From positions 345 to 64,344 of the forward strand of contig CAZJPL010000001.1 in the NCBI GenBank assembly GCA_964547945.1: a DNA stretch of 64,000 bases, written 5' to 3'. Shown here in pieces: positions 10,112 through 26,965 of the stretch. Within the stretch, counting starts at the first letter, position 1, and the number at the start of each line of letters is the position of its first letter. The position numbers were made by a program, and so were the translations under genes. The notes below the pieces were generated by a model. That model did not search any database and had not been told where the DNA came from. It was given only the letters and a program-made list of their open reading frames with translations. Source of the DNA: an uncultured Anaeroplasmataceae bacterium. GTDB taxonomy: Bacteria; Bacillota_I; Bacilli_A; Acholeplasmatales; Anaeroplasmataceae.

Positions 10112-10141
10112 CGTGTATAAAATGCCTTTAATTTGATATTT

Positions 10142-11544: not shown

Positions 11545-11569
11545 AAGGCATATCGTAATGATACACCTT
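11545..11569 (-). terminator. terminator after tRNA-Gln
   Basis: AAGGTGTATC-ATTAC-GATATGCCTT followed by TTTTTTATT on the minus strand. Confidence 0.6.
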
Positions 11570-11582
11570 GAATATACTAGGA

Positions 11583-11657
11583 TGGCAGGACTAACTGGAT
11601 TCGAACCAGTGAATGAGGGAGTCAAAGTCCCTTGCCTTACCGCTTGGCTATAGTCCT
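11583..11657 (-). tRNA. tRNA-Gln (anticodon UUG), CCA encoded
   Basis: Cloverleaf folded by hand: acceptor AGGACTA/TAGTCCT, anticodon stem AGGGA/TCCCT with loop CTTTGAC, T-arm ACTGG-TTCGAAT-CCAGT, 3' GCCA. Confidence 0.9.
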
Positions 11658-11728
11658 ATATTGCCCCTTACGGGGCTTTGGGATGTTAATTTGAAAAAGA
11701 TATTTAGACACTTTTGTGTCCGCGTATT

Positions 11729-11757
11729 ATTCTACTAAAAAACAAAATTGATTTCAA
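11729..11757 (-). promoter_or_regulatory. sigma-A type promoter for tRNA-Gln
   Basis: TTGAAA, 17 nt, TAGAAT on the minus strand, about 70 nt upstream of the tRNA. Confidence 0.6.
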
Positions 11758-11812
11758 GTATTTTATTTAGTTTTTTTCTTGTAAAACTTATAAAAAAAGA
11801 ACCTTGAATCTT

Positions 11813-12766
11813 TTATTTAGAAATCAAGGTATTATATCTTTTTACTACTTTATTTGCATCTTTAATAAATTGTTTTAAATTGTCCCAACTTTCTAACTTA
11901 CAACCACTAGCTTTAGCATGTCCTCCGCCTTGATATAAGTTAGCTAATTTATCTACATCAGGTCCTCTAGATCTTAATCTTACTCTTATTTCATTAGGAT
12001 ATTCAATTATTAAAGCCCACATAGGATATCCTGGTATTGAAGATATTAAATTAACCTGATTAGCAGCATCTTCATATTTTATATTATATTTTTCTACTAT
12101 ATCTTTAGTTATAGTAATATATGCAAAACCTGGTTTAGTTAATTTAAAATGAGATAATACATAACCTTTAAATTTCAAAATATCTAAGGTTTCTACACTT
12201 AATTTATTATCTATTTCGGCTACACTTATACCATATTCTAATAATTTAGCGGCTACTATAAATGTTTCACTATTAACATTATCAAATCTAAATCTACCCG
12301 TATCTGTAACTATACCAGTATATAAGGCAAAAGCAGCTTCTTTATTTAATTTCAAGCCTAGATTATCAGCTAATTCAAAAATCATTTGAGCACAAGCAGG
12401 TTTTTCTTCTACTACCCATTCTAAATTTCCATATGAATCAACAGGTATATGATGATCTATTTTAATAATTTCTTTAGCTAATTTATATCTTTGATCAGAT
12501 AATCTTTCACTATTACCACAATCTACACAAATAGCTAAGGCATTTTCATATTTATCGTCAGTTATATTATCAACTTCACCTAAAAAATTAATATAATCTG
12601 ACATTTGACCAACTGCGTATATTTCTTTTTCCGGAAAGTTTAATTTTAGTATAGCTCTTAAGCCAAATTGTGAGCCTATACAATCGCCATCAGGGCGAAC
12701 ATGACCATGAATTATTATTGTATTGTATTCTTCTATTTTATTTAAAATATCTCTAAATATAGCCAT
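11813..12766 (-). CDS. DHH/DHHA1 family phosphoesterase (NrnA-like nanoRNase/pAp phosphatase), paralog 2
   Basis: HVRPDGDCIGS, IDHH and C-terminal GGGHAKASG motifs. Confidence 0.85.
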   Translation of the reverse strand: MAIFRDILNKIEEYNTIIIHGHVRPDGDCIGSQFGLRAILKLNFPEKEIYAVGQMSDYINFLGEVDNITDDKYENALAICVDCGNSERLSDQRYKLAKEIIKIDHHIPVDSYGNLEWVVEEKPACAQMIFELADNLGLKLNKEAAFALYTGIVTDTGRFRFDNVNSETFIVAAKLLEYGISVAEIDNKLSVETLDILKFKGYVLSHFKLTKPGFAYITITKDIVEKYNIKYEDAANQVNLISSIPGYPMWALIIEYPNEIRVRLRSRGPDVDKLANLYQGGGHAKASGCKLESWDNLKQFIKDANKVVKRYNTLISK

Positions 12767-13724
12767 TATTTACTCCTTTATAATTTCTAGCTAAATTATT
12801 AAAATCCTCTATTACCTTATCAGCAACTTCATAATTATCTAAGGTAGCACCACAGGCAAATGCGTGACCTCCGCCACCATATTTTTTAGCTATTTCTACT
12901 ATTTCTACGCCTCTACTTCTAAATTCTCCTACTACCTTATCATTTTCTTTATCATAGGTAAAATTACACCAAATAATGACTTCTTCCACCCCAGCCATTA
13001 AATTAACCATACCTCTTGATATATCAAAGAAAGAAACATCAGGAAATTTAGCTAATACTTCTTCTGTACATTTAAGATAAGCTACTCCGTCTTCTGTTAT
13101 TTTAAATAAAGAAGAAAAATAGTTTTTCATAAGTCTTTGTTCTAACGTTTCTACATATAAATGATCATAAATAAACTGAATATCAGCACCTTGATTAAGT
13201 AAGAAACTAGCTACTAAAAAAGTAGTTTTAGTTGTCCCAGAATATTGAAATCTACCACTATCAGTAACTATACCACCATATAAACAGGTAGCACCATAAG
13301 CTGTAGTTTCTTTATTTAGGCTTAATAACATGTCTCCTATAATCTCAGCACAAGCTACTTTAGTTGTATCAGTATATACTAAAGCTCTATCCATATCACA
13401 ACTATTTTTATGGTGATCAATGACTACTATTTCTTTAGCCTTATTATATCTGTCATCACTAACCATAGCTTTTACAGCTACATCACAAATTATAGCTAAA
13501 CTATTTTCTATAATATCATCACTTATTTCATCCATTTTACCTATAAATTCATAACGTTTAGACATATCTCCTACAACATATATTTCTTTATCAGGAAAGT
13601 TTTTATTAATAGCTTGAGCTAAACCTAATTGGCTACCTAAAGCATCTAAATCAGGTCTAGAATGTCTAAATATTACTATAGAATCATATTTAGAAAATAG
13701 ATTCCATAATTCTTCATAATTCAT
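12753..13724 (-). CDS. DHH/DHHA1 family phosphoesterase (NrnA-like), paralog 1
   Basis: HSRPDLDALGS, IDHH and GGGHAFACG motifs; 14-nt overlap with paralog 2. Confidence 0.85.
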   Translation of the reverse strand: MNYEELWNLFSKYDSIVIFRHSRPDLDALGSQLGLAQAINKNFPDKEIYVVGDMSKRYEFIGKMDEISDDIIENSLAIICDVAVKAMVSDDRYNKAKEIVVIDHHKNSCDMDRALVYTDTTKVACAEIIGDMLLSLNKETTAYGATCLYGGIVTDSGRFQYSGTTKTTFLVASFLLNQGADIQFIYDHLYVETLEQRLMKNYFSSLFKITEDGVAYLKCTEEVLAKFPDVSFFDISRGMVNLMAGVEEVIIWCNFTYDKENDKVVGEFRSRGVEIVEIAKKYGGGGHAFACGATLDNYEVADKVIEDFNNLARNYKGVNNGYI

Positions 13725-13789
13725 AAAAAGTCCTCCTTCGGTAAGAAGTATTTTATCATATTTTTATATATCTTGAAAGTAAAAACACT

Positions 13790-15259
13790 CTAACTAGGCC
13801 AAGTTCTTCTTGGGACAGCTATTACGCCATCACTATCAGCTGTAAAGTAATCTGATTTACCTTTTCTACTACAAATATAATTGCTAGAATCAACATATAC
13901 TGTTTCATTAAACCATTCAGTATCCTTTAATTTAGTAACATTATTACTAGCACTAACAGCTACATTCTTGCCATCACTAGAAACTATTATATTACCATTT
14001 AAAGACTTTCTAGTTAATTCTACTTCATCATAATAACTAGTTACATATATTTGATCAGTATATTTAGCTACTCTATCTATAAAGTCTTGAGTAGGGAAAG
14101 TATTTAGGTAATTAGCTGTATATTCACTACCACCCGCACAACAAGTTACACATACTATATCTGGTTTAATTATCTCAAGTAAACATTCATTAGTAGAAGT
14201 TTTAGAACCATGATGACCTGCCTTAAATAAATCAACTTCAGGCAAAGTCTTTTCTTCACTAGAACCATCATAATACTCTGCCATAGCTTCTTCACCTTCA
14301 AGCTCTAAATCCCCTGTAAACATGTAATAATGTTCATTATAACTAAACATAGTACATACTGAATAATTATTCTCATCACTTGAAGTATTAAAATAATAGT
14401 AATTATACAATATATCCATAGTAATATTTAATTCTTCATCTAATACATATGTTCTACTAGCTCCACTCGCATTATTATAACAATCAGCTGCGTAATATAC
14501 TGTAGTACCATTATCCTCACAATAAGATACAGCATCTAAGAAATTAGAATAAATAGTTGTTGTCTTAGTAGTTAACTCATTTAAAATAATAGTTCCTACT
14601 TCATATTGATATAAAATACCAGATTTATTACTTCCTACAAACCCAGCTATATGATCTTGATCACCATGAGTAGCTATAACATATTCTAATACACCATCAG
14701 TAACATAATTATCTAAATATGATTTAATAGTACTAGCACTACCAGTTCTACTACCAGCATCTATTAAGATATCTACATCACCAGCTTTAATATAAATAGA
14801 ATCCCCACTATAATCATTACCAAGTTCTAAAAAATGTATTTGAAAGTCATCATAAGTAATACCTACTAAAGTATCATTATTATAGGTATAATCTCCATCA
14901 CTACCATTATTTTCATTACTATTATTATCATCTTCATTTTCTTTACCAATATTTACAATAATATAATTTTCTATAAAATTAACTATACCTATATTTACTA
15001 CCTTAAAATAATCTAAACATATAATAACTATTAATAAAACTACTATAATAGATAAAAGTATTGCGATTACTTTAGGTAATTTATTTGATTTAGAACTCTT
15101 TACTACACTAGTTATACTAGATTCAGTTTTATATTCATATCCTTTATCTTTACAATAAGATATTGCTTCTTCTTTAGTATCAAATATTTTACTAGCTCTT
15201 TTGCTATTTTCTTTCTTAATTTGATATCTTCCATCAGTTCTTTTACTTATTATATACAT
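13790..15259 (-). CDS. membrane-anchored ComEC-type metallo-beta-lactamase fold hydrolase with N-terminal DUF2188-like domain
   Basis: N-terminus YIISKRTDGRYQIKKENSKRASKIFDTKEEAISYC (DUF2188-like), one TM segment, then MBL motifs ATHGDQDHIAG and KAGHHGSKTS. Confidence 0.75.
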   Translation of the reverse strand: MYIISKRTDGRYQIKKENSKRASKIFDTKEEAISYCKDKGYEYKTESSITSVVKSSKSNKLPKVIAILLSIIVVLLIVIICLDYFKVVNIGIVNFIENYIIVNIGKENEDDNNSNENNGSDGDYTYNNDTLVGITYDDFQIHFLELGNDYSGDSIYIKAGDVDILIDAGSRTGSASTIKSYLDNYVTDGVLEYVIATHGDQDHIAGFVGSNKSGILYQYEVGTIILNELTTKTTTIYSNFLDAVSYCEDNGTTVYYAADCYNNASGASRTYVLDEELNITMDILYNYYYFNTSSDENNYSVCTMFSYNEHYYMFTGDLELEGEEAMAEYYDGSSEEKTLPEVDLFKAGHHGSKTSTNECLLEIIKPDIVCVTCCAGGSEYTANYLNTFPTQDFIDRVAKYTDQIYVTSYYDEVELTRKSLNGNIIVSSDGKNVAVSASNNVTKLKDTEWFNETVYVDSSNYICSRKGKSDYFTADSDGVIAVPRRTWPS

Positions 15260-15307
15260 AAGTTATAAACCTCCTATAGTGCACATTATACCATTTTTAA
15301 ACCTATT

Positions 15308-15342
15308 AAAAAAGCCTAGCCTATTTCTTTAAATAAGCTAGG
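15308..15342 (-). terminator. terminator after the endonuclease I gene
   Basis: CCTAGC...GCTAGG stem followed by TTTTTT on the minus strand. Confidence 0.65.
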
Positions 15343-15362
15343 TTTTACTTTATTAATATACC

Positions 15363-17222
15363 TTAATTATCATATTTATAAATTAAAGTAAAGGTATTTA
15401 TAGTTACTCTTGGTTGAGTACCATAAACTACTATAGCAACATAACCCGTTTTAGTTTCATCAAAGGTATAACTAATAGTTCCGTAAGTATCAACAGTACT
15501 ATCTATACCTAATTCCGTTACTTTTTCATAGGTTATATCATCACTTGAATATAAAATAGCTGCCCCAGATATGTTAGCATAAACTCTACCTATATCTAGC
15601 TCTATGCTATATAAATCTTCAACCTTAAATACTAATACCGAGTACTTAGTCCAACTATCTACATTATACTTAATATCTACATCAGCATTATAATTGTTAT
15701 TATTAGCTCCTATTATAAAACCACTCATAGTACTATAGTTAGAAGCATAGAATTCAACTCCATCAATTGTTACAGTAGCCCCAGTACTTGAATAACTTGT
15801 TCCTGTAGATGGGAAGTTACTATATAAATCATAAGTAACACTTTCATAACCTAATAATTTATTATATTCAGCTATCTTACTAGTTAATAAATCATAGTTA
15901 GTAATCTTAGTCTTATCAGCAGCTGATAAAGCTTCATATCTAGCTGATAATTCATCTAATAAATCTTTATCATCTAAAGTAATAGTTTTATCTCTTAATG
16001 TTTCAATATCAGTAATTAAATCACTTACTGTAGTATCTACTTCAGTATCAACAGATTCAACTATAGATAATACATTTTCTTCAGTTACTCCTAGTTCTTC
16101 ACTTTCTTCTGTATATAAATAATATACAAATTCAGGATGATCTATATAAGGATTTCTATTACCTTGATATGAATAAACTACTTCATTACGATATATTTCT
16201 TCTTCAGATACAGGATCTTCATAATGCCATTTTACTAAAGTATCTAACATACCTAGTACTGGACTTCCACTACTATAATTACCTGAATTATCTAGAGTTA
16301 AAGTTAATTCACTATCACTATATCTAGTAACCATGTAAAATAACATTCTAGCTACATCACCTTTAACTTCATCTCTAGGTTCAAATACAATACTAGTCCA
16401 TGAATTACCATATGAATCAGTATTAGTAGGGTTATCTATTTCATCAAAATAACTATTACTTCTACTACTATTAATATTCTTTTCACTAGCTCTTAAATGA
16501 TGAGCATCTGAATAAGCTGTATATGATTCACTATCAAATCCATATGATTTAGCCCATACATGTTCTCTATTCCATACTACACTGCTACTTGAACTACCAT
16601 CTCTAGCATCCTTATCAATGGCAATACCTGTATAAAGACAAGTTATATGATCTTCATCATATGCATCAGATTCTTGTAGTACTGTCCATACTTCAGAATA
16701 TGATAATTCATAAGTATGAGTAGATACTATAATCTCGTTTAATACTTCGAAGAAATTATCAAAATTACCAGTTAAATCACTGTAATATCCAGTATATGTT
16801 ACTTCACTTGGAATAGTTGTATCTCCACTAGTAGTTGTCCCACCTTCATTACCTGAACTAGATGAAGATAAAGCTAATACAACAACATCAAAATCAGTAT
16901 ATCTATTATTGTTGTTATAAGTAATACTAGCTTCTAAAGATACACTTACAGCAGATTCAGTTTGTGTTACTTTAGCTGTACTACCACTAATAACAATAGC
17001 ACTATTATCACTTTCCCAAGTAACATCTACTGTATATGTTTCATAAGTAACTGATATTGTCAAAGTAAAGTCTTCACTAACCTCACTAGGTATATCAAAT
17101 TCCTCTACTAATTTAATTAATTCATCAGCTATTTCACTAGATGATATAACTTCAGTATTATTACATCCAGTTAAGCCAATAAATACTAATATAAATAAAA
17201 TAAATGTATAAATCTTTTTCAT
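15363..17222 (-). CDS. endonuclease I family extracellular nuclease lipoprotein
   Basis: Lipobox LTGC|NN; endonuclease I motifs NREHVWAKS, DAHHLRASEKNINSSRSNSYF, GDVARMLFYM, NRNPYIDHPE; extra N- and C-terminal beta-rich modules. Confidence 0.85.
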   Translation of the reverse strand: MKKIYTFILFILVFIGLTGCNNTEVISSSEIADELIKLVEEFDIPSEVSEDFTLTISVTYETYTVDVTWESDNSAIVISGSTAKVTQTESAVSVSLEASITYNNNNRYTDFDVVVLALSSSSSGNEGGTTTSGDTTIPSEVTYTGYYSDLTGNFDNFFEVLNEIIVSTHTYELSYSEVWTVLQESDAYDEDHITCLYTGIAIDKDARDGSSSSSVVWNREHVWAKSYGFDSESYTAYSDAHHLRASEKNINSSRSNSYFDEIDNPTNTDSYGNSWTSIVFEPRDEVKGDVARMLFYMVTRYSDSELTLTLDNSGNYSSGSPVLGMLDTLVKWHYEDPVSEEEIYRNEVVYSYQGNRNPYIDHPEFVYYLYTEESEELGVTEENVLSIVESVDTEVDTTVSDLITDIETLRDKTITLDDKDLLDELSARYEALSAADKTKITNYDLLTSKIAEYNKLLGYESVTYDLYSNFPSTGTSYSSTGATVTIDGVEFYASNYSTMSGFIIGANNNNYNADVDIKYNVDSWTKYSVLVFKVEDLYSIELDIGRVYANISGAAILYSSDDITYEKVTELGIDSTVDTYGTISYTFDETKTGYVAIVVYGTQPRVTINTFTLIYKYDN

Positions 17223-17245
17223 TTATAGCTCCTTATTATAAAAAC

Positions 17246-17277
17246 AAGGAAAGAGAGTTGTTTTTCTCCCTTTCCTT
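17246..17277 (-). terminator. terminator/attenuator after the 826-aa lipoprotein gene
   Basis: AAGGAAAGGGAG-loop-CTCTCTTTCCTT followed by GTTTTTAT on the minus strand. Confidence 0.7.
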
Positions 17278-17295
17278 TATTGTTTTTCTCAAATA

Positions 17296-19776
17296 TTATT
17301 CAGCAAAATAAACATTAATGCTTGTAATATAACAACGAGCATTTTCTGTACTTGCACATTGAATAGTAAATGAAGTAATTCCTTCAGCATATTCTATAGT
17401 GTATGTAGTAGGAGTATCAGAAGATGTTAGAAGTTCATCAGAACCAGTTACTGATAATGACGCTTCATAAGAAGTACTATGAGAATAGAAGGTAATTTCT
17501 ATACTAGCAATTGTTGCCCCCCCAGATACTGTAAAAGTCATTGAGGTACCATTACCATCAGAAACGTTTAAATTTGGATATAACCTTAATACTCCTTCTG
17601 TTGTAGCAAATACAGTTGAAGATCCAGAGTTTTGAGCTGTCGTAACAGTCCAAACTTCAGAGTCTAAATTAACTGAGCTAGCATAATTAACGCTTGCATC
17701 ACTTAAATTTCCGTTAGATGCAACGGTGGCTTTTATAACAGCATCTGCATCTGATACGTTTTCGTCTTCAGAACCTTCTTCGCTATCTCCAGGTTCAGCT
17801 TCAGCCACTAACACGATATCACTTTCTGAAAGTGGACAAATTTCATATATTTTGCTTGAATTATACCAAGTATAATAACCAGAAACAGTATAAGTATTTC
17901 CTACAACAAATAATTGACTAGGTGTGAAACTGCTATAAATTGTAGAATCTTTATATATAGTTATTTCATTATCGCCAACTGTAAGAACTACTGAAGAGCT
18001 AGAAACTGATTTTACAACACCAGTAACAGAAACATATCCACCTTGATATGTGTCAGTATCTACACCACTAGAAACTGCTTCTGTAATATCAGTAGCTGTT
18101 GGAAAATTATTTCCTACACTTACTACTGTAACAGTATCAATACTTGTAGGGACAATTTCATGTACATTATTATAAATAGCTTTTGTTCCGCTTATAGTTA
18201 ATTCGTTACCAACTACGAATTTACTTTCAAATTCTGTTTGATCAACTCCATACCAATATACATAGTAACCACCAACAGAATCGCTTGTTAAATAAGCATA
18301 ACAATATGAACTTCTACATCCTACTGCGTATACTATACCAGTAACAGTAATTGAATCGCCATCTTCAGCATTATAATATGTATCATATTCAGATGAATAT
18401 TCTTTAAGAGAGAATGTAAATTCAATAGTGTCTGTAGCTGTTCCTAAATCATCATCACTTACAGTAATAGTTGCTTTTAAAGTAACAACTACTTCATCTG
18501 ATGGATAATCTACTATAGTTAATACATTGCCTTCTGTGCTTACATATTCACTATCAGCTGACCATTCTACAGTTACTCTTGAATCATCAGATTGATATAA
18601 TGAAACTGCTTCATATTCACTAGTTTTTGTAATAACTGAAGGAATTGAAGTTGCAGAATTTAACTTCATTGTTTCAGTATAAAGAACAGATTCTGCTGTT
18701 TCTTCTACTTTAGTAATAGTAAGATCATCAGTATCTACTAATACAACTTGCCATGTACCATTATAGTTAGTTAAGTAACCTTTAACATCAATTATATCAT
18801 TGATTGTTAATTCATTAGATGTAAGATAATCACTTACTTCTTGGAAGTATGCTAATTTAGTTGCTGATGAAGTACTTTCAAATAAATATGAATTTAAAGC
18901 AACAGTAAATGTCTTACCACCTAATTCAGCAGTAATAATAGTTTGAGTTGAACCAGATACACTAACTCCTGATACACTTGTAACAGTCGCTCCTGTTAAT
19001 TCAACATACATACCTGTTTTATATAATAATATGTCGCCATAATCATCAGTATTATCATTTATAAAATCTTCATTTAAATTATAAGCACCTTGATCTACAT
19101 ATGCTGTTAAATCAGATTCTATAGTGATTGAAGCACCTGAACCAATTTGATGACCTTGATTATAAACATCTTTTGAACCAGAAATAGTAATAGCTGTACC
19201 AACTGATAATGAATCATATACATCTTGAGAAGCTGATGCTCTAAATGCATAGAAACCACCTAAATAATTTGAATCAGTCATATATAAACAGAAATTACTA
19301 TAGCTTGCACTATATTCACCTAAATAAGTAATATAACCAGTGATACTTACTGATGAACCTGATGCAGCATCATAGAAGTTAGTAACTACTTCTTGAGGAT
19401 CTACTGCAGCTGTTATTTTTACTCTAAATTGTTTAGTAGCTGTTTCTTTATTGTATGTCAATGTAGCTGTAAAATAAGCTCTTACATCATCTTCTTGACG
19501 ATTAACAACAGCTGTATAAGTTCCATCACTATTAGCAGTGAAAGATATATAATCTTCAGATCCTTCATCAGCTGCCCAAGTAACAGTAGCAGTAGCACTA
19601 CCTGCTGTTATAGAACCAGGAACAGTAAAGTTCGCTGCTACTTCTTGACCATCTTCAGTTAGTATTAATCTACTAATAAGATCTTCTGCTGTATAGTCAT
19701 CACTACATGATGCTAAAGTGAAAACCCCAAGTAATACCAAAGCTAAAGCTGTGAATAACTTTGTAATTTTTTTCAT
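17296..19776 (-). CDS. large surface lipoprotein with an internally duplicated Ig-like + OB-like module array (putative nucleic-acid binding)
   Basis: Lipobox LASC|SD. Two copies of the unit [Ig-like ...VTW..D...; barrel 1 ITGYITYLG...TISGSKDVYNQGHQI / VTGIVYAVG...TISGTKAIYNNVHEI; barrel 2 ...VKGYLTNYNGTWQVV / ...VSGYYTWYNSSKIYEI]. Confidence 0.6.
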   Translation of the reverse strand: MKKITKLFTALALVLLGVFTLASCSDDYTAEDLISRLILTEDGQEVAANFTVPGSITAGSATATVTWAADEGSEDYISFTANSDGTYTAVVNRQEDDVRAYFTATLTYNKETATKQFRVKITAAVDPQEVVTNFYDAASGSSVSITGYITYLGEYSASYSNFCLYMTDSNYLGGFYAFRASASQDVYDSLSVGTAITISGSKDVYNQGHQIGSGASITIESDLTAYVDQGAYNLNEDFINDNTDDYGDILLYKTGMYVELTGATVTSVSGVSVSGSTQTIITAELGGKTFTVALNSYLFESTSSATKLAYFQEVSDYLTSNELTINDIIDVKGYLTNYNGTWQVVLVDTDDLTITKVEETAESVLYTETMKLNSATSIPSVITKTSEYEAVSLYQSDDSRVTVEWSADSEYVSTEGNVLTIVDYPSDEVVVTLKATITVSDDDLGTATDTIEFTFSLKEYSSEYDTYYNAEDGDSITVTGIVYAVGCRSSYCYAYLTSDSVGGYYVYWYGVDQTEFESKFVVGNELTISGTKAIYNNVHEIVPTSIDTVTVVSVGNNFPTATDITEAVSSGVDTDTYQGGYVSVTGVVKSVSSSSVVLTVGDNEITIYKDSTIYSSFTPSQLFVVGNTYTVSGYYTWYNSSKIYEICPLSESDIVLVAEAEPGDSEEGSEDENVSDADAVIKATVASNGNLSDASVNYASSVNLDSEVWTVTTAQNSGSSTVFATTEGVLRLYPNLNVSDGNGTSMTFTVSGGATIASIEITFYSHSTSYEASLSVTGSDELLTSSDTPTTYTIEYAEGITSFTIQCASTENARCYITSINVYFAE

Positions 19777-19805
19777 TTTATTCTCCTTGTTTTTTGTATT
19801 TATGA

Positions 19806-21011
19806 TTAAGAAACTATCTTTAATTCACTAAAATTATTAACTACGAAACTAATCTCCATATCGCTAGAACTTGTTCCGTTTACATTAAATCCAAACACAG
19901 AAATTTCATGACCAATATAATCTTGGATATTAATTTCTTCTGTTATTTCAACAGTAAATGTAACATATACTATGCCAGCACTTTCTTGATTTATTCTATA
20001 AGTAGTACCAGTGAATGTATAAGTTGTTCCATCATTTGTAACATCTGTTACAGTAATATTTTCAAAAGCAAAACTAGGTTTAGAAACATTTGAACCCATA
20101 CCAAAGGTTAAATAATAACCTGCTGTTACTATTGATGATGAGTAGGTTACAGTTGAACCATATTGAACACCTGAAATTTGCCAATTACCATAATATTGCT
20201 GAACAGTTCCTACAACAATAACTCTATTACCTTGATTTTTCAAGATAGCTGCTGAGGTATTGTGTAAGTAAACAGTAATACTATAATATTCACCATCAAT
20301 ATAATCAGTTAAAGTTATATAGGAATTATCATAGTAATCAGAAATATAACCTTCTACAGAAACCATCATGTTAACTAGGTCTTCTATATTTTCAAGTAAA
20401 GATTTTACATCATAACTAGTTGGAGTGTCTGAGAATAATGGATCATCTTCATCAGACCAAATATGTAATGAATTATTTTTAGCATATGTTTGAGCTTCTG
20501 CAAAATAATCAGCATATTTTCCTTGACCAACTGCTGTACTTTCTGAATAACCATTTTGAACTAATTCAAGGTTAAGATTACGATATTCAGCATCTTCACT
20601 TGATTTATACCATACATAGCCTAAATAACGACCATAAGAATCTGTACGAGAACCACTTGCAGGTTCATATTCTAATACTATGCTAACAGCACTTTCTAAT
20701 TTTTCTTTAGTAAAATTAGAAGCTGCTAAACCCCATTTTTCAACATCGCCAGTAGATTCTGGGGTGTCAATACCATAGAATCTAAGTGTGACAGTCCCCG
20801 CAGAATCTGAAAATCTAGCTGTATCGCCATCAGTTACTGACAATAAAGTCACTTCACCGATGCCGTCATTTATAAAAGATAAACCTTCAAAATCACTTTC
20901 TAATTTTAAAGTACCTGTAACATCATCTGTTGTAGATGAACAACTTGTTAAACCTAATGCACCACTAAATAAAATGACAAGACAAACTAACCATTTTATT
21001 GTTTTTCTCAT
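19806..21011 (-). CDS. staphylococcal-nuclease (SNase/thermonuclease) domain lipoprotein with C-terminal OB-like module
   Basis: Lipobox LTSC|SS; SNase motifs VTDGDTARF, LRFYGIDTPES, DSYGRYLGYVWY, LNLELVQNGYS. Confidence 0.88.
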   Translation of the reverse strand: MRKTIKWLVCLVILFSGALGLTSCSSTTDDVTGTLKLESDFEGLSFINDGIGEVTLLSVTDGDTARFSDSAGTVTLRFYGIDTPESTGDVEKWGLAASNFTKEKLESAVSIVLEYEPASGSRTDSYGRYLGYVWYKSSEDAEYRNLNLELVQNGYSESTAVGQGKYADYFAEAQTYAKNNSLHIWSDEDDPLFSDTPTSYDVKSLLENIEDLVNMMVSVEGYISDYYDNSYITLTDYIDGEYYSITVYLHNTSAAILKNQGNRVIVVGTVQQYYGNWQISGVQYGSTVTYSSSIVTAGYYLTFGMGSNVSKPSFAFENITVTDVTNDGTTYTFTGTTYRINQESAGIVYVTFTVEITEEINIQDYIGHEISVFGFNVNGTSSSDMEISFVVNNFSELKIVS

Positions 21012-21017
21012 AATTAC

Positions 21018-22421
21018 CTAGAATGTACATTCATCGTATGCATCTTGTAATGCATCTTTTGGATCAGTTCCATTTAATACATACACTAAAGCATAACCGA
21101 TTTGTGTACGTGCAGTATTTGAACCACTGAATGCAGGAGATACGAAGTACATATCATAATTTTCTAATGCGAAATTAATTGTTTGAGCAATTAAATCATC
21201 TGATGATGATAACCATTCACTATAAGGAACTGCTACACCTTCAGAATCTTCTATAGTAACTGAAGTAACATCTTGAGCACTTAATCTAACAGGAATATAA
21301 CCAGATTGTGCTGAGAATTCAGCTTGGAATTCTGGTTCTAATAACATTTTTACAAATTCCCAAGTTGCTCTTTCTTTATCATCATCACCTTGGTCTAACA
21401 TAACAAGAGAAGGACCTTGGTTAATTGATTTAGGATTAGTAGGATCTACTTGTGGAATTGATGTAACTCCAACTTCAAAATCATCAGAATCTTGATAGCT
21501 TGCACCAGCTGAAGAACCAATTGAGAATACACATGATTCTATAGTATATACATAATCACTCGCTGATGAATTTGTAGTTTGTCTAGATACTGTAAATAAG
21601 TTAGATGTATAAGAACCATAAATATCTTGAACAGTATATAAACCTTGATCAAAATATTCTTTTAATGTAGTAAGTAAACCTGCAACATCATCATTATTGA
21701 ATAAATAATATGGTGATTCAGATGAAGTATAATCATAACCATATTGTTCACATAAAGTTATCATCCAGTTATCAACACTATCATAACCCATTGGAACCCA
21801 TTCTGAATAAACACTATTTTTAATTTTAGAGCATACATCCCAGAATGTTTCCCAAGTCCAGTTATCTATATCATCAACTGTTTCTTGATCTAAAACGCCT
21901 CTTTCTACTAAATCTTCTAATGCATCAATATTGTAATACATAACTTCTGTTGATTTAGAGAAAGGAACTGTATACATACCATCTTCAATTGAAGAACCAC
22001 CAAAAGCTTCATAACCTTCAGCCCAATAACCTTCAATAAAATCAGCTATTTCTTCATCAGTATAACCAATTTCATCATCAAGAATGAACTCACTTAAATC
22101 AACAACTACATTTGCTTCTAAATATTCAGCAACGTGATCTGGATAGCAATATGCTAAATCAGGTAAATTACCTGTAGCTAAATCAGCAATAACTGCTTCT
22201 TTAACGCCATCATAACCACCACTTATTACAGTTACATCAACTTGATAATCATCATGAGTTGAATTAAACTCTTCTGCTACTGCTTCAAGCAATGGTGATA
22301 AACTTGTACCTGCTGAAGTATAGAAGGTAATCGTATTATCTGATGAAGATCCACATGAAGCAAGTGAAAAAACTCCCAAACCAGCTAATACCAAAGAAGT
22401 AAACAATTTTGAATGTTTCAT
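21018..22421 (-). CDS. ABC transporter substrate-binding lipoprotein (solute-binding family 1, CUT1-type)
   Basis: Lipobox LASC|GSS; family-1 SBP pattern; directly downstream of the MalFG-type permease genes. Confidence 0.85.
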   Translation of the reverse strand: MKHSKLFTSLVLAGLGVFSLASCGSSSDNTITFYTSAGTSLSPLLEAVAEEFNSTHDDYQVDVTVISGGYDGVKEAVIADLATGNLPDLAYCYPDHVAEYLEANVVVDLSEFILDDEIGYTDEEIADFIEGYWAEGYEAFGGSSIEDGMYTVPFSKSTEVMYYNIDALEDLVERGVLDQETVDDIDNWTWETFWDVCSKIKNSVYSEWVPMGYDSVDNWMITLCEQYGYDYTSSESPYYLFNNDDVAGLLTTLKEYFDQGLYTVQDIYGSYTSNLFTVSRQTTNSSASDYVYTIESCVFSIGSSAGASYQDSDDFEVGVTSIPQVDPTNPKSINQGPSLVMLDQGDDDKERATWEFVKMLLEPEFQAEFSAQSGYIPVRLSAQDVTSVTIEDSEGVAVPYSEWLSSSDDLIAQTINFALENYDMYFVSPAFSGSNTARTQIGYALVYVLNGTDPKDALQDAYDECTF

Positions 22422-22478
22422 ATTTTCTCCTTTTATTTTTTGTTTAAATATATGTAATAAACTAGCTTATGCTAGATA

Positions 22479-23405
22479 TTACCCCTTAATACCACTTCTA
22501 GATACGCCACGCATAATATATTTTCTAAAACAGAAGAATAATATTAATAGTGGAATAGTTGTAATAACTGAAGCCGCCATTCTAATAGGGACAACAATAT
22601 TACTACTATCACCAGAAGCAGGATAACCACTTGAACTCATCCAGTTAGAAATAAGCTGATATGCTTTATTCTTATTAACTAATTGAGGCCAAATGTATGA
22701 GTTCCATACACCTATAATCTTTAATAATAAGATTGATATTAAAGTAGGTGAAGCTAAAGGAACCATAACTTTAAATAAATATTTAAAATCAGACACACCA
22801 TCTATTTTAGCTGCTTTATATAATTCATCAGGAACTTGTTTAAAAGTATTCCTTAATAAATAGATATAATAAACACTAATCATAAATGGTAAGATTAAAG
22901 CTGTTAAAGTATTTCTTAAATTCATATCTGATATAGTAACAAAGTTAGTGATTGTATATAATTCACCAGGAATCATCATTGTTGCTAATAACAAAGTGAA
23001 TAGTAAATTTTTTCCTTTAAACTCTAATCTAGCAAATGCATAAGCTGTAAATATTGTAACTAATAATCCAAGGCCTGTAGAAGTTATAGCAACTAATATT
23101 GTATTAACAATAGCTGTTGAAAATGAACCTCCACCAGAGCTTGTATAAGTAAACGCATCAACATAATTTGACCACTGCAATGTTTCAGGAATCATATCTG
23201 TTATTTCAGTAAATGTACGATATTCTAAATCAGTCATAAGCGATGATAAAATCATGAATATGAATGGGAATACTGAACAAATTGCACATATAGTCAAAAT
23301 TATATATAAAACTGTTTGAGCTGTAATATGTGCAGCTAAACTTTTACGTTTTGTTCTTTTGACTTGAGTTTGATAAGATGTTTGATTAACTGTCGCTTGC
23401 ATCAT
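22479..23405 (-). CDS. carbohydrate-type ABC transporter permease (MalG/UgpE-like)
   Basis: Six TM segments; EAA loop ELYKAAKIDGVSDFKYLFKVMVPLASP. Confidence 0.9.
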   Translation of the reverse strand: MMQATVNQTSYQTQVKRTKRKSLAAHITAQTVLYIILTICAICSVFPFIFMILSSLMTDLEYRTFTEITDMIPETLQWSNYVDAFTYTSSGGGSFSTAIVNTILVAITSTGLGLLVTIFTAYAFARLEFKGKNLLFTLLLATMMIPGELYTITNFVTISDMNLRNTLTALILPFMISVYYIYLLRNTFKQVPDELYKAAKIDGVSDFKYLFKVMVPLASPTLISILLLKIIGVWNSYIWPQLVNKNKAYQLISNWMSSSGYPASGDSSNIVVPIRMAASVITTIPLLILFFCFRKYIMRGVSRSGIKG

Positions 23406-23413
23406 ATCACCTC

Positions 23414-24421
23414 TTAATAATGAACTGTCTTCTTACTAATCCATTGATTAATAAGAGTAAAGACTAAAATAATTCCAAATAGTATTAAAGCACCAGCAGA
23501 TGCTAGACCTAATCTACTATCTTCTAACATATCGTAGATGAAACCAACTATAGTATTCATCTCACCATTTATTTGACCCATATTAGTACCAAAGATACCT
23601 ACGATTGATGTATATTCTTTAAATCCACCAATGAAACCTGTTACTACTAAATAAGATAAAATTGGTGAAATTAAAGGAACAGTAACATGCATCATAGTTC
23701 TAAATTGACTAGCTCCATCTATCTTAGCTGCTTCATAATATTGTTTATTAACACTTTGAAGAGCTGAGAAGATAATCAATATCTTAAATGGTAATGCTGC
23801 CCAAATAGAATATAAGATAACTACAGTACGAGCAGCCCAATCAGAAGCTGAAGTATTAACCCATACTATAGGGTCTATTCCAAAGAAACTTAATAATGTA
23901 TTAACAAAACCAATAGATGTAGCACCTTCAATAGTTCCACTCGAACTAACTACATTAAACATGGCCGAGAAAACAGCACCGATAGCTAAAGCGTTTGTTA
24001 AATATGGTAAGAAAAATACTGTTTGATATACTTTTTGTAACCATTTAATTGAATTTAGCCACACAGAAATTAACAAGGCTAAAATTGTTGAAATAGGTAC
24101 TGATATAAAAGCAAATAACAGTGTATTTATTAAGCATGTTTGAAAATTGCCATAAGAAATAACTTTAGTAAAGTTAGCAATTCCCCAACCATCAAATGCT
24201 TTAGTTGTAGATTTATAATCTTCCATAAATGCTGTAATACATGTTTTGATGATAGGATATACAGTAAATAATCCTATAAACACTAAAGCAGGAATTAAAT
24301 ATAAATAACCTTTATTATGTTCAAAAGCTTTTCTAATTCTAACTTTTAAAGGTTTTTTATCAAATGGACTTTTTTCAACCACTAAGGCTTCATCTTGAAC
24401 AACAATGTTTTCTTGTTCCAT
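23414..24421 (-). CDS. carbohydrate-type ABC transporter permease (MalF/UgpA-like)
   Basis: EAA loop YYEAAKIDGASQFRTMMHVTVPLISP. Confidence 0.9.
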   Translation of the reverse strand: MEQENIVVQDEALVVEKSPFDKKPLKVRIRKAFEHNKGYLYLIPALVFIGLFTVYPIIKTCITAFMEDYKSTTKAFDGWGIANFTKVISYGNFQTCLINTLLFAFISVPISTILALLISVWLNSIKWLQKVYQTVFFLPYLTNALAIGAVFSAMFNVVSSSGTIEGATSIGFVNTLLSFFGIDPIVWVNTSASDWAARTVVILYSIWAALPFKILIIFSALQSVNKQYYEAAKIDGASQFRTMMHVTVPLISPILSYLVVTGFIGGFKEYTSIVGIFGTNMGQINGEMNTIVGFIYDMLEDSRLGLASAGALILFGIILVFTLINQWISKKTVHY

Positions 24422-25488
24422 TATCTAAGCCTCTCTTCCGTTTCGGCATCAAATAGCAAGACTTTTTGAGGCCTTAAGTTGAATTTAATCTCTCCTTCTG
24501 ATGGCATATTTGTTAAAGAATCAACTATAGATCTAATAGTAGGTTTAGTACTTTCAGGATGTTTAGATACGATAGTAATATCTCTACCCATTACTTCTAA
24601 GTGATCAATATTAGTAGTAAATACACCATTAGGATCAACAACAAATCCTTCAGGACGAATGCCAACAAATATATCTCTATCTTCTAGATGAGTATCCATA
24701 ATTTTTTCTTCACCTATATATACTCCACCATCTTTAATTACACCTTTAAATATATTAATTGGAGGAGTTCCTAAGAAGTTAGCAACGAATAAATTAACTG
24801 GATCATCATATACTTCTTGAGGTTTACCAACTTGTTGCATAACACCTAATTTCATAACTACAATGAAATCAGAAATAGACATAGCTTCTTCTTGGTCATG
24901 AGTAACGAAAATAGTTGTTACTCCGGTTTCTCTTTGAATTCTCTTAATTTCTTCCCTTGTTTGTAGACGTAATCTAGCATCTAAGTTAGATAATGGTTCA
25001 TCTAATAATAAAACATTAGGGTCTTTTACTAAAGCTCTTGCGATAGCTACTCTTTGTTGTTGACCACCAGATAATTCACTAGGTTTACGATCCATCAATT
25101 GTTCGATTTGAACTATCTTAGCAGCTTGGAAAGCTTTAACAGCAGCTTCCTTTTTAGGAACTCTAGCACTTTCTAATGGGAATAAAATATTTTTCGCAAC
25201 TGTCATATGTGGATATAACGCATAGTTTTGGAAAACCATTCCTATTCCTCTTTTTTCAGCGGCTAAATCTGTTACATCAGCATCATCAAAATAAATATGA
25301 CCAGATGTAGGTTCTTGCAAACCAGCAATCATATATAGAGTAGTTGATTTACCACAACCTGAAGGTCCTAATAAACCAATTAATTGACCATCTGGAATTT
25401 CAATGGTCAAATCATCTACTGCTCTAACTTCGCTTTTTTGCTTTTTGTTAGTAAAAATCTTAGTTAAGTTTTCAAGTACAACTTTCAT
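24421..25488 (-). CDS. ABC transporter ATP-binding protein (MalK/UgpC/MsmX-like)
   Basis: GPSGCGKST, LSGGQQQRVAIARAL, LLLDEPLSNLD plus a MalK-type C-terminal regulatory domain. Start ATG 25488 after GGAGGA. Confidence 0.93.
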   Translation of the reverse strand: MKVVLENLTKIFTNKKQKSEVRAVDDLTIEIPDGQLIGLLGPSGCGKSTTLYMIAGLQEPTSGHIYFDDADVTDLAAEKRGIGMVFQNYALYPHMTVAKNILFPLESARVPKKEAAVKAFQAAKIVQIEQLMDRKPSELSGGQQQRVAIARALVKDPNVLLLDEPLSNLDARLRLQTREEIKRIQRETGVTTIFVTHDQEEAMSISDFIVVMKLGVMQQVGKPQEVYDDPVNLFVANFLGTPPINIFKGVIKDGGVYIGEEKIMDTHLEDRDIFVGIRPEGFVVDPNGVFTTNIDHLEVMGRDITIVSKHPESTKPTIRSIVDSLTNMPSEGEIKFNLRPQKVLLFDAETEERLR

Positions 25489-25585
25489 AAATCCTCCAAC
25501 TGAGTACAAAACTTATTCAAAATAATTTTATCATAAACAACTATTACAATAAAGTTTTTTATAAATCTTTACAAAAAATTTACAT

Positions 25586-26965
25586 TTAAAACTCTAGGTT
25601 TTTAGGGGTTCTTGGGAACGGAATTACATCTCTTATATTCTCTACTCCAGTGATATACATTAGTAATCTTTCAAAGCCCATTCCAAAACCACTATGAATG
25701 CACCCTCCGTATCTTCTAGTATCTAAATACCAATCCATAGATTCAGGTTCGATATGAAATTGTGCCATTCTCTTTAATAAAATATCCATTCTTTCTTCTC
25801 TTTGAGAACCACCACATAATTCTCCAGATCCCGGAACTAATAAATCGACTGCCGCCACCGTCTTTTTATCATCATTTAAACGCATGTAAAACGCCTTAAT
25901 TTGTTCAGGCCAATCTTTAACAAATACAGGTGATTTAAAATACGTTTCTGTAAGATATTTTTCGTGTTCTCTACCTAAATCTTTTCCATATTCAGGTTCT
26001 TCTTCAAATTTCAGTTTAGCTTCTTTTAATAAAGTAATGGCATCATGATGAGTAATTCTTACAAATTTCTTATCTAGGACATTTTTTAAACGTTCAATTA
26101 AACCTTTTTCAACAAATTTATCAAAAAAGTTCATCTCTTCTTTTGCATGATCTAATACATATTTAATTATATATTTAATCATTTCTTCCATAATATCCAT
26201 ATTATCATTTAAATCATAAAAAGCCATTTCTGGTTCGATCATCCAAAACTCACTAGCATGTCTTAAAGTATTTGAGTTTTCAGCTCTAAAAGCTGGCCCA
26301 AAAGTATAAACATTACTAAAAGCTAAGGCATAAGCTTCTGCCTCTAGTTGACCAGTAACAGTTAGGTTTGCTGGTTTACCAAAAAAATCTTTTGAATAAT
26401 CAATTTCTTTGCCTTGTAATTTATCTAGTTCTAAGGTAGTTACCTGAAACATTTGTCCAGCCCCTTCCCCGTCGTTTGAGGTAATTATAGGACTATGTAA
26501 ATAGACAAATCTTTTTTCTTCAAAAAAATGATGTGTTGCATGAGCACATATACTTCTTACTCTAAATACAGCACTAAATAAATTAGTTCTAGGTCTTAAA
26601 TGAGCATGTTCTCTTAAAAATTCTCTAGTATGTCTTTTAGGTTGAATTGGATAATCTTCACCACAAGTACCAAGAAGTTTATAACTACTTGCTTTAATTT
26701 CAAATGGCTGTTGATTATTTGGTGTTAATACTAAAATACCTTCAACCTCAATTGACATACCTGCTCTTGCTTTTCTAGCTTCTTCAATGCCAATAGTAGT
26801 ATCATCATAAACTATTTGAATGGATTCAAAAAAAGTTCCATCATTCAAAACAATAAAACCAAACGCTTTCTGATCTCTATTATTTCTAACCCAACCTCTA
26901 AGTAATACTTTTTTACCTTCATATTTTTTAGGGTCAGCAAATAATTGGTAGCTTAAATCTCTCAT
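25586..26965 (-). CDS. asnS: asparagine--tRNA ligase
   Basis: Class IIb aaRS: N-terminal OB, FRAENSNTLRHASEFWMIEPE, GFGMGFERL. Confidence 0.96.
   Translation of the reverse strand: MRDLSYQLFADPKKYEGKKVLLRGWVRNNRDQKAFGFIVLNDGTFFESIQIVYDDTTIGIEEARKARAGMSIEVEGILVLTPNNQQPFEIKASSYKLLGTCGEDYPIQPKRHTREFLREHAHLRPRTNLFSAVFRVRSICAHATHHFFEEKRFVYLHSPIITSNDGEGAGQMFQVTTLELDKLQGKEIDYSKDFFGKPANLTVTGQLEAEAYALAFSNVYTFGPAFRAENSNTLRHASEFWMIEPEMAFYDLNDNMDIMEEMIKYIIKYVLDHAKEEMNFFDKFVEKGLIERLKNVLDKKFVRITHHDAITLLKEAKLKFEEEPEYGKDLGREHEKYLTETYFKSPVFVKDWPEQIKAFYMRLNDDKKTVAAVDLLVPGSGELCGGSQREERMDILLKRMAQFHIEPESMDWYLDTRRYGGCIHSGFGMGFERLLMYITGVENIRDVIPFPRTPKNLEF

Follow-up and report, generated by a model that had tools for sequence, protein, structure and literature searches.

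A block of ten genes in the genome of an uncultured Anaeroplasmataceae bacterium probably encodes a cell-surface system for scavenging of extracellular nucleic acid, assembled from a conserved four-part core and several accessory units. The block is situated in a stretch of 64,000 nt (contig CAZJPL010000001.1 of assembly GCA_964547945.1, positions 345 to 64,344), hereafter called the window, which has a G+C content of about 27% and reads through in the standard genetic code. The core consists of an ATP-binding cassette (ABC) importer, its solute-binding protein (SBP), a nuclease of the staphylococcal type (SNase) and a protein with an array of OB folds. Judging from the evidence of sequence, we give this reading a probability of roughly 0.65. 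Gene content, domains, intact catalytic and ligand-binding residues, predicted terminators and conserved neighbourhoods are direct results of the analysis; the function built upon them appears supported for the core and plausible for the satellite genes.

Gene organization of the block

The block is formed by ten consecutive open reading frames (ORFs) on the minus strand, from 25509 to 11813, whose neighbours either overlap or lie 6-103 nt apart. Pfam and NCBIfam assigned a domain identity to every one of them, in agreement with the coordinates and domains proposed in a first-pass annotation of the same DNA. The extents given there also agree as ORFs, but the ATPase most likely starts at ATG 25488, which is preceded by a GGAGG ribosome-binding site, and not at TTG 25509.

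The series opens with an ABC ATPase of the UgpC/MalK type (24421-25509; PF00005, E=2e-38), which scores 362 bits against the UgpC model of NCBIfam, below its cutoff of 432. Two CUT1-type permeases follow, one UgpA/MalF-like (23414-24421; PF00528, E=1e-15) and one UgpE/MalG-like (22479-23405; PF00528, E=1e-18), with UgpA and UgpE as their respective top NCBIfam matches. Next come the solute-binding lipoprotein (21018-22421; SBP_bac_1/8, with E=5e-37 for SBP_bac_8; lipobox LASC), the SNase lipoprotein (19806-21011; PF00565, E=1e-17; lipobox LTSC) and the OB-array lipoprotein of 826 aa (17296-19776; two aBig_2 domains and PF01336; lipobox LASC). The remaining four genes encode an endonuclease I lipoprotein (15363-17222; aBig_2 and PF04231, the latter with E=1.7e-43; lipobox LTGC), a membrane-anchored metallo-beta-lactamase (MBL) hydrolase (13790-15259; PF09954, i.e. 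DUF2188, and PF00753, i.e. Lactamase_B; ComEC as top NCBIfam match) and two DHH/DHHA1 phosphoesterases with PF01368 and PF02272. We call the latter DHH1 (12753-13724; 250 bits against the NCBIfam NrnA model), a diverged paralogue, and DHH2 (11813-12766; 265 bits), the closer NrnA homologue. Their genes overlap by 14 nt. All four lipoboxes are clear, as had been noted from the sequence before for the last three.

Gaps between the genes from the ATPase to the SNase do not exceed 57 nt, and the stretch 25.5-17.3 kb is free of strong predicted terminators. The first strong one follows the OB gene: a minus-strand hairpin at 17246-17277 with a 12-bp stem and a U run (-19.3 kcal/mol in context, z -4.9). 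A second hairpin of this kind, also with a 12-bp stem and a U run, follows the endonuclease I gene (15315-15342, minus strand; -18.2 kcal/mol in context, z -3.1). A predicted extended -10 promoter-like element, TGGTATAAT (15285-15293, minus strand), lies downstream of this terminator and ahead of the MBL gene with its AGGAGG ribosome-binding site. Both hairpins had been recognized in the first-pass annotation, and they are real and terminator-like. Their interpretation as attenuators within one operon finds no support: the predicted terminators, both of them strong, and the extended -10 promoter divide the block, which most likely comprises three predicted units, ABC-SBP-SNase-OB, endonuclease I, and MBL-DHH1-DHH2, in place of a single operon. 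The hairpin at 17277-17246 abuts the ribosome-binding site of the endonuclease I gene, which would therefore need either read-through or a promoter inside the OB gene. In another Anaeroplasmataceae metagenome-assembled genome (MAG; locus L010), a terminator occupies the same position after the OB gene, with a promoter-like site and then DHH1-DHH2 behind it.

Directly upstream of the ABC core lies asnS (25586-26965, minus strand), itself preceded by a T-box leader (26996-27211, minus strand; 110 bits). The gap of 76 nt between asnS and the core is free of predicted terminators, and the asnS-ABC adjacency is kept in six related Acholeplasmatales-type loci. Read-through from a leader sensing tRNA-Asn into the scavenging operon is therefore possible. 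At the other end of the block, a gene for tRNA-Gln (UUG) is found 155 nt downstream of DHH2 (11583-11657, minus strand), with a terminator behind it at 11569-11545; it may share a transcript with the DHH pair.

A windowed calculation of composition had been suggested as a way to see whether 17.3-25.5 kb is foreign. It is not: the G+C content at third codon positions (GC3) is 0.124 in the block and 0.120 outside of it, so nothing points to a recent foreign origin, and the equal GC3 together with the asnS synteny kept in relatives rules this origin out. The higher total GC of the block results from richer codon positions 1 and 2.

Conservation of the core and its neighbours

A profile of the binding protein was scanned against one genome per species. 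Of the 600 matches listed, 598 were confirmed as relatives, which gives at least 598 loci. The family as a whole exceeds 4,600 proteins at E<1e-5. The neighbourhood counts given in this text refer to the best 80 of the at least 598 loci, in which ORFs were labelled with the window proteins. These 80 include Acholeplasmatales and Anaeroplasmataceae, among them the cultured Anaeroplasma bactoclasticum ATCC 27112, and further Christensenellales-type, Oscillospiraceae, Acutalibacteraceae and Faecousia genomes, as well as some bins labelled Sphaerochaetaceae. Five loci (L047, L048, L052, L056 and L081) have a Clostridia-like layout in bins labelled Sphaerochaetaceae or Spirochaetales, which points to horizontal transfer or to mis-binning.

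The order ATPase-permease-permease-SBP-SNase occurs in 76 of the 77 loci with room for it, the SNase gene standing directly after that of the binding protein, and the ATPase is the first core gene in 75 of the 80. A homologue of the OB protein, belonging with it to one single-linkage family, comes directly after the SNase in 71 loci. Four proteins encoded directly after an SNase were sampled; all four reached the PF01336 cutoff, and Pfam identified the OB fold in sampled Clostridia versions.

The DHH genes are less tightly placed. At least one of them lies within 10 kb of the core in 40 of the 80 loci, in convergent orientation (31 loci), downstream on the same strand (7) or upstream (2). If only loci with at least 9 kb of downstream sequence are taken, a DHH gene is found in 34 of 48 and both genes in 29. 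Their median distance from the core is 5.1 kb and the order DHH1-DHH2 is constant across loci. For one given locus in a genome of about 2 Mb, the chance of such proximity is about 1%. In L010, DHH1-DHH2 directly follow the OB gene.

Other neighbours recur too. The gene for SurE is present in 32 to 33 of the 80 loci, depending on the count method, an RDD membrane protein in front of the ATPase in 50, an NT5C-guanylate kinase fusion in 18, a large Metallophos-5'-nucleotidase protein in 16, an HD hydrolase in 8 and a nucleoside phosphorylase in 5. With shadow ORFs set aside, all recurrent neighbours with identified domains are nucleotide enzymes or small membrane proteins. No homologue of SurE, nucleoside phosphorylase, NT5C, 5'-nucleotidase, the RDD protein or U402 was found in the window.

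The place directly upstream of the ATPase deserves a separate remark. In lineages with giant OB proteins (L007, L008, L011, L013, L014, L016 and others) it is taken by two conserved genes without Pfam domains, which encode a hydrophobic, membrane-like protein of about 90 aa and a protein of about 400 aa. They occur in 19 of the 80 loci, 18 of which have an OB-array match. In other Clostridia the RDD-family membrane protein occupies this place. The window carries neither kind.

The first-pass annotation had proposed to look for SNase, endonuclease I and OB lipoproteins co-occurring next to CUT1 transporters, and had seen in the whole block a complete pipeline leading from the outside of the cell to its inside. 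Such co-occurrence was found for SNase and the OB protein; endonuclease I is next to the core in only 13 of the 80 loci, on either side of it, with Christensenellales-type loci among them. The MBL gene is present in a single locus of the 80. The pipeline as such agrees with the conserved neighbourhoods and with the phosphate-binding residues described below, but endonuclease I and the MBL hydrolase do not belong to its core. In our reading of these sequences, ABC-SBP-SNase-OB would represent the core and the DHH pair a persistent satellite, with endonuclease I and the MBL hydrolase as probably interchangeable accessory hydrolases.

The relatives of the OB protein illustrate how the accessory genes come and go. 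In metagenomic contigs whose OB proteins are about 40% identical to that of the window, the order is asnS-ABC-SBP-SNase-OB-EndoI, then an insert of 3 kb, then MBL-DHH-DHH. A relative with 31% identity has an extra aBig_2 lipoprotein in place of the insert. More distant relatives (23-27% identity), including "Candidatus Fimimonas"-type genomes, combine ABC-SBP-SNase with an OB protein of 1,400 aa and convergent SurE-DHH-DHH; these relatives are without endonuclease I and MBL. NCBI taxonomy puts "Candidatus Fimimonas" in Myxococcaceae, a poor fit to its Firmicute-like locus.

The adjacency of MBL and DHH genes is kept in L001, L003, L005, L009 and L089. The last of these (positions 1-12055 of an Erysipelotrichaceae MAG) encodes a binding protein of the same family, with 30% identity and the same motifs, followed by a Listeria-Bacteroides-repeat protein, a GDSL esterase, two extracellular MBL hydrolases and a DHH protein; there is no SNase. 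Such content suggests modular exchange of the extracellular hydrolase.

The binding protein and its probable cargo

An SBP_bac_1/8 protein, two BPD_transp_1 permeases and an ATPase of the MalK/UgpC type together make up an importer of the CUT1 class. The C-terminal regulatory OB domain of the ATPase (OB_MalK) is matched weakly, with 21 bits against a cutoff of 27. The cargo of such an importer is decided by its binding protein. Using the family profile, the nearest solved relatives of the window protein are UgpB and the Thermus thermophilus 7c0f series (E from about 1e-34 to 1e-33). Going by the citation in PMC12718374, 7c0f is probably the dinucleotide-binding protein of T. thermophilus. Residues 6-184 of the window protein also match the NCBIfam family of mycoplasma P68 lipoproteins (E=2e-15).

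Two tyrosines and two serines that hold the phosphate are common to UgpB and to the glycerophosphocholine-binding protein of Mycobacterium tuberculosis (PMC12718374). The same source reports this set in the uridylyl-3'-5'-guanosine (UpG)-binding protein of T. thermophilus as well. In UgpB, the phosphate is held by Tyr64, Ser143, Ser266 and Tyr342, and the glycerol by Trp188/191, Glu88, Gly303 and Arg393 (PMC12718374). We mapped these residues (9LFF numbering) onto the window protein by a HMMER alignment and by an independent MAFFT alignment of 90 members of the family. The phosphate set is retained: Ser143, Ser266 and Tyr342 correspond to S157, S303 and Y375, each kept in 90 of 90 members, and Tyr64 corresponds to Y70, which is Tyr in 76 members and Trp in 14. 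Gly303 (G336) and Arg393 (R438) are likewise kept in all 90. The glycerol clamp of Glu88 and Trp188/191 is missing. The counterpart of Glu88 is P94 and is never Glu (Pro in 72 members, Ala in 17, Gln in 1), Trp188 is replaced by Y213 (88 Tyr, 2 Ile) and Trp191 has no counterpart in the family. Further, the family has invariant polar residues of its own, namely D95, H96, D214, N218 and Q335 in the 90 members, and the motifs YCYPDHVA, GYDS..NW and QGPS.

The family shares with UgpBAEC and the CUT1 relatives for phosphorylated ligands a common fold and transporter class, the four phosphate-holding Tyr/Ser and the equivalents of Gly303 and Arg393. It differs from UgpBAEC in the lack of the glycerol clamp, in its own invariant motifs and in its genomic link to nucleases instead of glycerol metabolism. 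By these residues, the binding protein appears to belong to the phosphate-ligand branch of CUT1, outside the binders of glycerol phosphate.

We consider a phosphorylated nucleotide or short oligonucleotide the likeliest cargo, for four reasons. Firstly, the phosphate residues of UgpB are kept and its glycerol clamp is missing. Secondly, SNase yields 3'-phosphorylated mono- and dinucleotides. Thirdly, the importer is paired with NrnA-type enzymes and with SurE, a 3'/5'-nucleotidase. Fourthly, a CUT1 protein reported to bind a dinucleotide provides a precedent.

The surface lipoproteins

The SNase domain spans residues 75-187 of its lipoprotein, the C-terminal half of which is uncharacterised. 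In an alignment to the nuclease of Staphylococcus aureus, the DGDT motif, R35, D40-T41-P-E43 and R87 are kept, and so is the equivalent of D21. All catalytic residues and Ca2+ ligands are hence retained.

The OB protein is composed of a duplicated module, aBig_2 plus OB fold, and a C-terminal beta-sandwich domain. The duplication, suspected already in the first-pass annotation, is confirmed by an internal repeat (residues ~64-211 against ~402-541; 30% identity, E=6e-12). PF01336 is matched marginally (27.6 bits against a cutoff of 27). The AlphaFold2 (AF2) model has a mean predicted local distance difference test score (pLDDT) of 73.8. Foldseek searches with the full-length model gave mostly meaningless strings of Ig-like and beta-sandwich domains and only local matches of probability 1.0 were used. 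Such matches point to OB folds: the tandem OB of HIN (template-modelling score, TM, 0.45), the anticodon-binding OB of LysRS/AspRS (root-mean-square deviation, rmsd, 3.1 A) and the OB of RPA (rmsd 3-4 A). The C-terminal sandwich of the model is carbohydrate-binding-like. On this modelled architecture, we presume that the OB protein serves in capture of nucleic acid.

The endonuclease I protein matches PF04231, the family of Vvn, EndA and Bsn, over profile positions 9-235 of 235, and carries a C-terminal extension. It has no sequence match in PDB at E<=1e-3; motifs EHVW and NSSRSN can be read in its sequence. We classify it, from its sequence and distribution, as a putative lineage-specific accessory nuclease.

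The three lipoproteins had been thought to share an Ig-like module near the N-terminus and beta-rich modules at the C-terminus. The former is true of the OB and endonuclease I proteins, whose aBig_2 modules match each other (E=1.3e-4); no aBig_2 was detected in the SNase lipoprotein. As for the C-terminal modules, no mutual sequence similarity of the three is detectable, and at the level of sequence this part of the idea has to be abandoned.

The MBL hydrolase and the DHH pair

The MBL protein begins with DUF2188, continues with one predicted transmembrane helix (residues ~63-84) and ends with a metallo-beta-lactamase domain of the ComEC type. Its sequence matches in PDB are to ComEC only. The AF2 model (pLDDT 87.2) has its top fold match in the beta-lactamase-like domain of ComEC (9ic4; E=1e-14, TM 0.79). 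The HxDxDH-type and HHGS motifs are kept. Pfam found neither a Competence nor a DUF4131 domain in the protein, which does not qualify as a polytopic ComEC channel. With its single transmembrane helix and basic, presumably cytoplasmic DUF2188 head, the positive-inside rule would orient the MBL domain outward.

DHH1 and DHH2 are 37% identical, both consist of DHH and DHHA1 domains, and the IDHH and GGGH motifs are intact in both. The best PDB relative of each is NrnA of Bacillus subtilis (E=4e-75 for DHH2, E=2.5e-47 for DHH1), and both remain below the NCBIfam cutoff for NrnA equivalogs (265 and 250 bits against 350). NrnA is a bifunctional oligoribonuclease and pAp phosphatase. Enzymes of its type favour di- and trinucleotides (PMC11229311).

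Alternative explanations

Several facts speak against the scavenging system as proposed. Surface location, order of events, cargo and every enzyme activity are, at this locus, inferred from sequence. The synteny counts are not independent, since related Clostridia contribute many of the 80 loci. The predicted terminators and promoter divide the block. The 3-kb insert in the relatives with OB proteins of about 40% identity, which consists of an unknown lipoprotein, HipBA (toxin-antitoxin) and TetR on the opposite strand, separates the units as well, and three of four distant MBL homologues sit in unrelated contexts. These contexts rule out the MBL hydrolase as a universal partner. Standalone DHH pairs can have housekeeping roles, for example NrnA and the c-di-AMP phosphodiesterase PdeM, paralogues in Mycoplasma pneumoniae (PMC5508000).

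One may therefore suspect a mosaic of units that merely lie side by side. ABC-SBP-SNase-OB would be the only system among them, endonuclease I would be a secreted RNase/DNase standing on its own, the MBL hydrolase an unrelated phosphodiesterase of the surface, and the DHH pair would do housekeeping as a nanoRNase and a phosphodiesterase for c-di-AMP/pApA. The division into units, the opposite-strand gene between endonuclease I and MBL in relatives, the contexts of MBL homologues and the example of M. pneumoniae all fit such a mosaic. DHH1 is relatively closer than DHH2 to cyclic-dinucleotide phosphodiesterases, so a division of labour like that of NrnA and PdeM is possible, and 40 of the 80 loci show no DHH gene within reach. 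However, the distance of the DHH pair from the core remains within 10 kb in several bacterial orders, although side and strand change, and in L010 the pair is the next thing after the OB gene. L089 has a member of the binding-protein family that is tied to MBL and DHH genes even without SNase. Endonuclease I, too, is met repeatedly in Christensenellales-type loci, now on one side of the core and now on the other. We regard the mosaic as unlikely, and as the rival that survives best.

The cargo of the proposed scavenging system can be disputed from another side. All ABC components score best against the NCBIfam models of Ugp, the glycerol-3-phosphate (G3P) system (UgpC, UgpA, UgpE and UgpB are the top matches), and the phosphate-binding residues, common to UgpB and the glycerophosphocholine-binding protein (PMC12718374), suit glycerophosphodiesters equally well. 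An ordinary Ugp-type importer of G3P or glycerophosphodiesters could thus be at hand, to which the nucleases are unrelated, or whose "SNase" cuts a different phosphodiester polymer. In M. pneumoniae, MPN134-136 carry the annotation of a putative G3P system, and a mutant in MPN133, the SNase lipoprotein, grows more poorly on glycerol (PMC3178575, PMC4766277); this annotation and phenotype constitute the main rival as far as cargo is concerned. The second-best fold match of the MBL protein, Pce, is the phosphorylcholine esterase of pneumococcal teichoic acid; other phosphodiesterases and RNase J come after it. Nevertheless, all Ugp scores are far under the curated cutoffs (the binding protein reaches 73 bits with the UgpB model, the cutoff being 411). 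The clamp of Glu88 and Trp188/191 exists in 0 of 90 members of a family that has invariant residues of its own. GlpQ, GlpK and GlpD are absent from the recurrent neighbour families scanned, of which the identified ones are nucleotide enzymes and OB-fold proteins, and the SNase keeps every catalytic residue of a nuclease. A Ugp-type importer is, in our opinion, quite unlikely.

Another possibility is that nucleic acid is indeed scavenged, and what enters the cell is unphosphorylated: nucleosides or sugars such as deoxyribose, released by the nucleases together with surface nucleotidases, with no need of DHH enzymes for the imports. CUT1 transporters are typically sugar carriers, the Metallophos-5'-nucleotidase of sixteen loci could dephosphorylate outside the cell, and nucleoside phosphorylase genes are located near some loci. 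In opposition to this, the four residues that coordinate the phosphate show little or no variation across the family, the block of the window contains no surface nucleotidase, and the lasting linkage to NrnA-like enzymes and SurE fits only the entry of phosphorylated species. We judge the prospects of unphosphorylated cargo to be about as poor as those of glycerol phosphate.

Finally, a competence-like apparatus for DNA uptake and transformation, brought to mind by the ComEC-type MBL domain and by the EndA-type nucleases among relatives of endonuclease I, can be dismissed, since the MBL protein has a single transmembrane helix and no ComEC channel domain, genes for ComEA, ComF or a pilus are missing from the block, any DNA taken up would be destroyed by SNase and the NrnA-like enzymes, and long DNA cannot pass through an ABC importer that relies on a binding protein for small molecules.

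Comparison with known systems

The concept of such scavenging is not new. The first-pass annotation called the combination of genes an operon type not described before, which is too strong in view of precedents from mycoplasmas and from Izemoplasma and Hujiaoplasma (PMC3585158, PMC9740415, PMC8397711, PMC10470597). Its other statement, that SNase lipoprotein genes are embedded in sugar-type ABC operons of mycoplasmas, is borne out by the literature (PMC3585158, PMC9740415). In Mycoplasma agalactiae, the genes for the P80 binding protein, the SNase MAG_5040 and the ABC components are co-transcribed, and a model in which the nuclease feeds the importer has been proposed (PMC3585158). Nuclease genes of mycoplasmas are usually found in ABC operons (review, PMC9740415), and the cargo of these SNase-linked transporters is still a hypothesis (PMC3585158, PMC9740415).

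The mycoplasma operons (Mycoplasma hyopneumoniae mhp379; M. agalactiae MAG_5030-5070; M. pneumoniae MPN133-136; M. hominis MHO_0730; M. bovis MBOV_RS02825) have a surface SNase lipoprotein together with an ABC transporter of Ugp or sugar type, made up of an ATPase, two permeases and a binding lipoprotein (P80). The window resembles them in this: it has an SNase lipoprotein with intact catalytic residues and adjacent genes for all these ABC components on the same strand. The gene order is different, being ATPase-permeases-SBP-SNase in the window and binding protein-SNase-ATPase-permeases in mycoplasmas. In comparison with the latter, the window adds the OB array, endonuclease I, the ComEC-like MBL hydrolase and the tandem DHH pair, and its host is Acholeplasmatales-like and uses the standard genetic code, unlike the hosts of the mycoplasma operons. 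The likeness to these operons is one of description, and the P68 match is the sole hint of kinship from sequence.

Locus-tag numbers place the NrnA homologue MPN140 of M. pneumoniae a few genes from the SNase-ABC genes MPN133-136 (PMC6609329, PMC5508000, PMC3178575). Going by gene numbers only, the proximity of nuclease, importer and NrnA may extend to mycoplasmas.

Closer in content are the "nucleic-acid degradation loci" of two wall-less Bacilli, Xianfuyuplasma coldseepsis zrk13 (Izemoplasma) and Hujiaoplasma nucleasis zrk29, which are induced by DNA/RNA in organisms that grow on DNA (PMC8397711, PMC10470597). They reportedly comprise a thermonuclease, a DNase/RNase endonuclease or an extracellular ribonuclease, along with phosphohydrolases, NrnA and ABC transporters. 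They are described as annotation lists and were compared by description; the binding-protein family, the OB partner and the cargo are not analysed there.

Individual parts have known counterparts too. YhcR of B. subtilis is a surface Ca2+-dependent, sugar-nonspecific nuclease that unites OB-fold, SNase and 5'-nucleotidase modules and makes 3'-nucleotides. Its modules are fused and sortase-anchored, with no adjoining importer, whereas those of the window are separate lipoproteins in a transporter operon. The MBL domain of ComEC is the best match of the window MBL in both sequence and fold (9vc6, 9ic4); in contrast to ComEC, the window protein has a single transmembrane anchor and a cytoplasmic DUF2188, and is without the polytopic DNA channel. 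NrnA (B. subtilis YtqI; M. pneumoniae MPN140) is a standalone DHH/DHHA1 enzyme, and the presence of two paralogues per genome is shared with M. pneumoniae (PMC5508000). The window pair is unlike NrnA/PdeM in that its genes are in tandem, overlap and are genomically tied to the nuclease-importer core.

In the literature searched, we found no description of an SBP-SNase-OB system with DHH and SurE in gut Clostridia. Nor did this literature yield an account of the invariant OB partner, of the family's phosphate-binding residues or of its wide spread in gut Clostridia. The system is an elaborate version of the nucleic-acid scavenging long proposed in mycoplasmas.

Proposed mechanism

A possible course of events is as follows. 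The core, predicted to be one transcription unit (25.5-17.3 kb), would supply a CUT1/Ugp-like importer, a binding lipoprotein, a Ca2+-type SNase and the OB lipoprotein. In the first step, the OB array would keep DNA or RNA at the membrane. The SNase would then cleave it to 3'-phosphorylated mono-, di- and short oligonucleotides, presumably helped in this lineage by the endonuclease I lipoprotein and by the membrane-anchored ComEC-like MBL phosphodiesterase. In the third step, phosphorylated products would be taken by the binding protein and brought in by the ABC transporter. Lastly, the two cytoplasmic NrnA-like DHH/DHHA1 enzymes would turn short oligonucleotides and 3'-phosphorylated species into mononucleotides for salvage. 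Other lineages may add SurE, the NT5C-guanylate kinase, HD hydrolases or nucleoside phosphorylase to this scheme.

Other features of the window

A gene for a protein with Schlafen AlbA_2 and HATPase_c_4 domains (10142-11344, minus strand) adjoins the DHH genes. An AbiEii-type toxin gene is located at 55430-56889 (plus strand), and an ORF of 201 aa upstream of it may encode the antitoxin. Genes of both kinds are typical of defence or mobile islands. An IS4-type DDE transposase lies beside a XerC-like tyrosine recombinase at 34680-36958 (minus strand).

At 41347-43620 (minus strand), pyruvate formate-lyase is split in frame. An ORF of 677 aa stops at TAG 41587 and, after a gap of 9 nt (TAGGAGGAGAAT) that contains a perfect AGGAGG ribosome-binding site, an ORF of 76 aa with the glycyl-radical motif RVSGYAV begins. 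By its sequence, the latter resembles a subunit of the GrcA "spare part" kind, which is translated on its own and bears the radical; a sequencing error seems the less likely explanation. Another composite ORF, of 532 aa (51937-53535, minus strand), joins an rRNA adenine dimethylase (KsgA) to an IspE-like N-terminal domain of GHMP kinases; this is either a fusion or a missed stop.

Implications

As early as the 1980s, mollicutes (Mycoplasma mycoides) were reported to take up intact nucleotides, an activity still without an assigned gene (PMC6609329). The locus described here provides a testable candidate for a bacterial importer of nucleotides or oligonucleotides. The key is the binding protein (21018-22421), which is soluble and easily expressed, and whose conserved residues predict a phosphorylated ligand other than glycerol phosphate.

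We would go further, with somewhat less than even confidence, and suggest that the family is the receptor of a dedicated ABC importer for 3'-nucleoside monophosphates and di- to pentanucleotides. It would then be the long-sought nucleotide uptake system of Mollicutes, shared with gut Clostridia and Bacilli of at least about 600 species, with the OB protein as obligate capture partner and DHH1-DHH2(-SurE) as a dedicated processing arm.

Gut Clostridia, Bacilli and Acholeplasmatales carry the core in at least about 600 species-level genomes. If our interpretation is true, it would account for the way in which many gut bacteria with reduced genomes feed on dietary, host and microbial nucleic acids, and nucleotides would represent a new class of substrates for CUT1 transporters.

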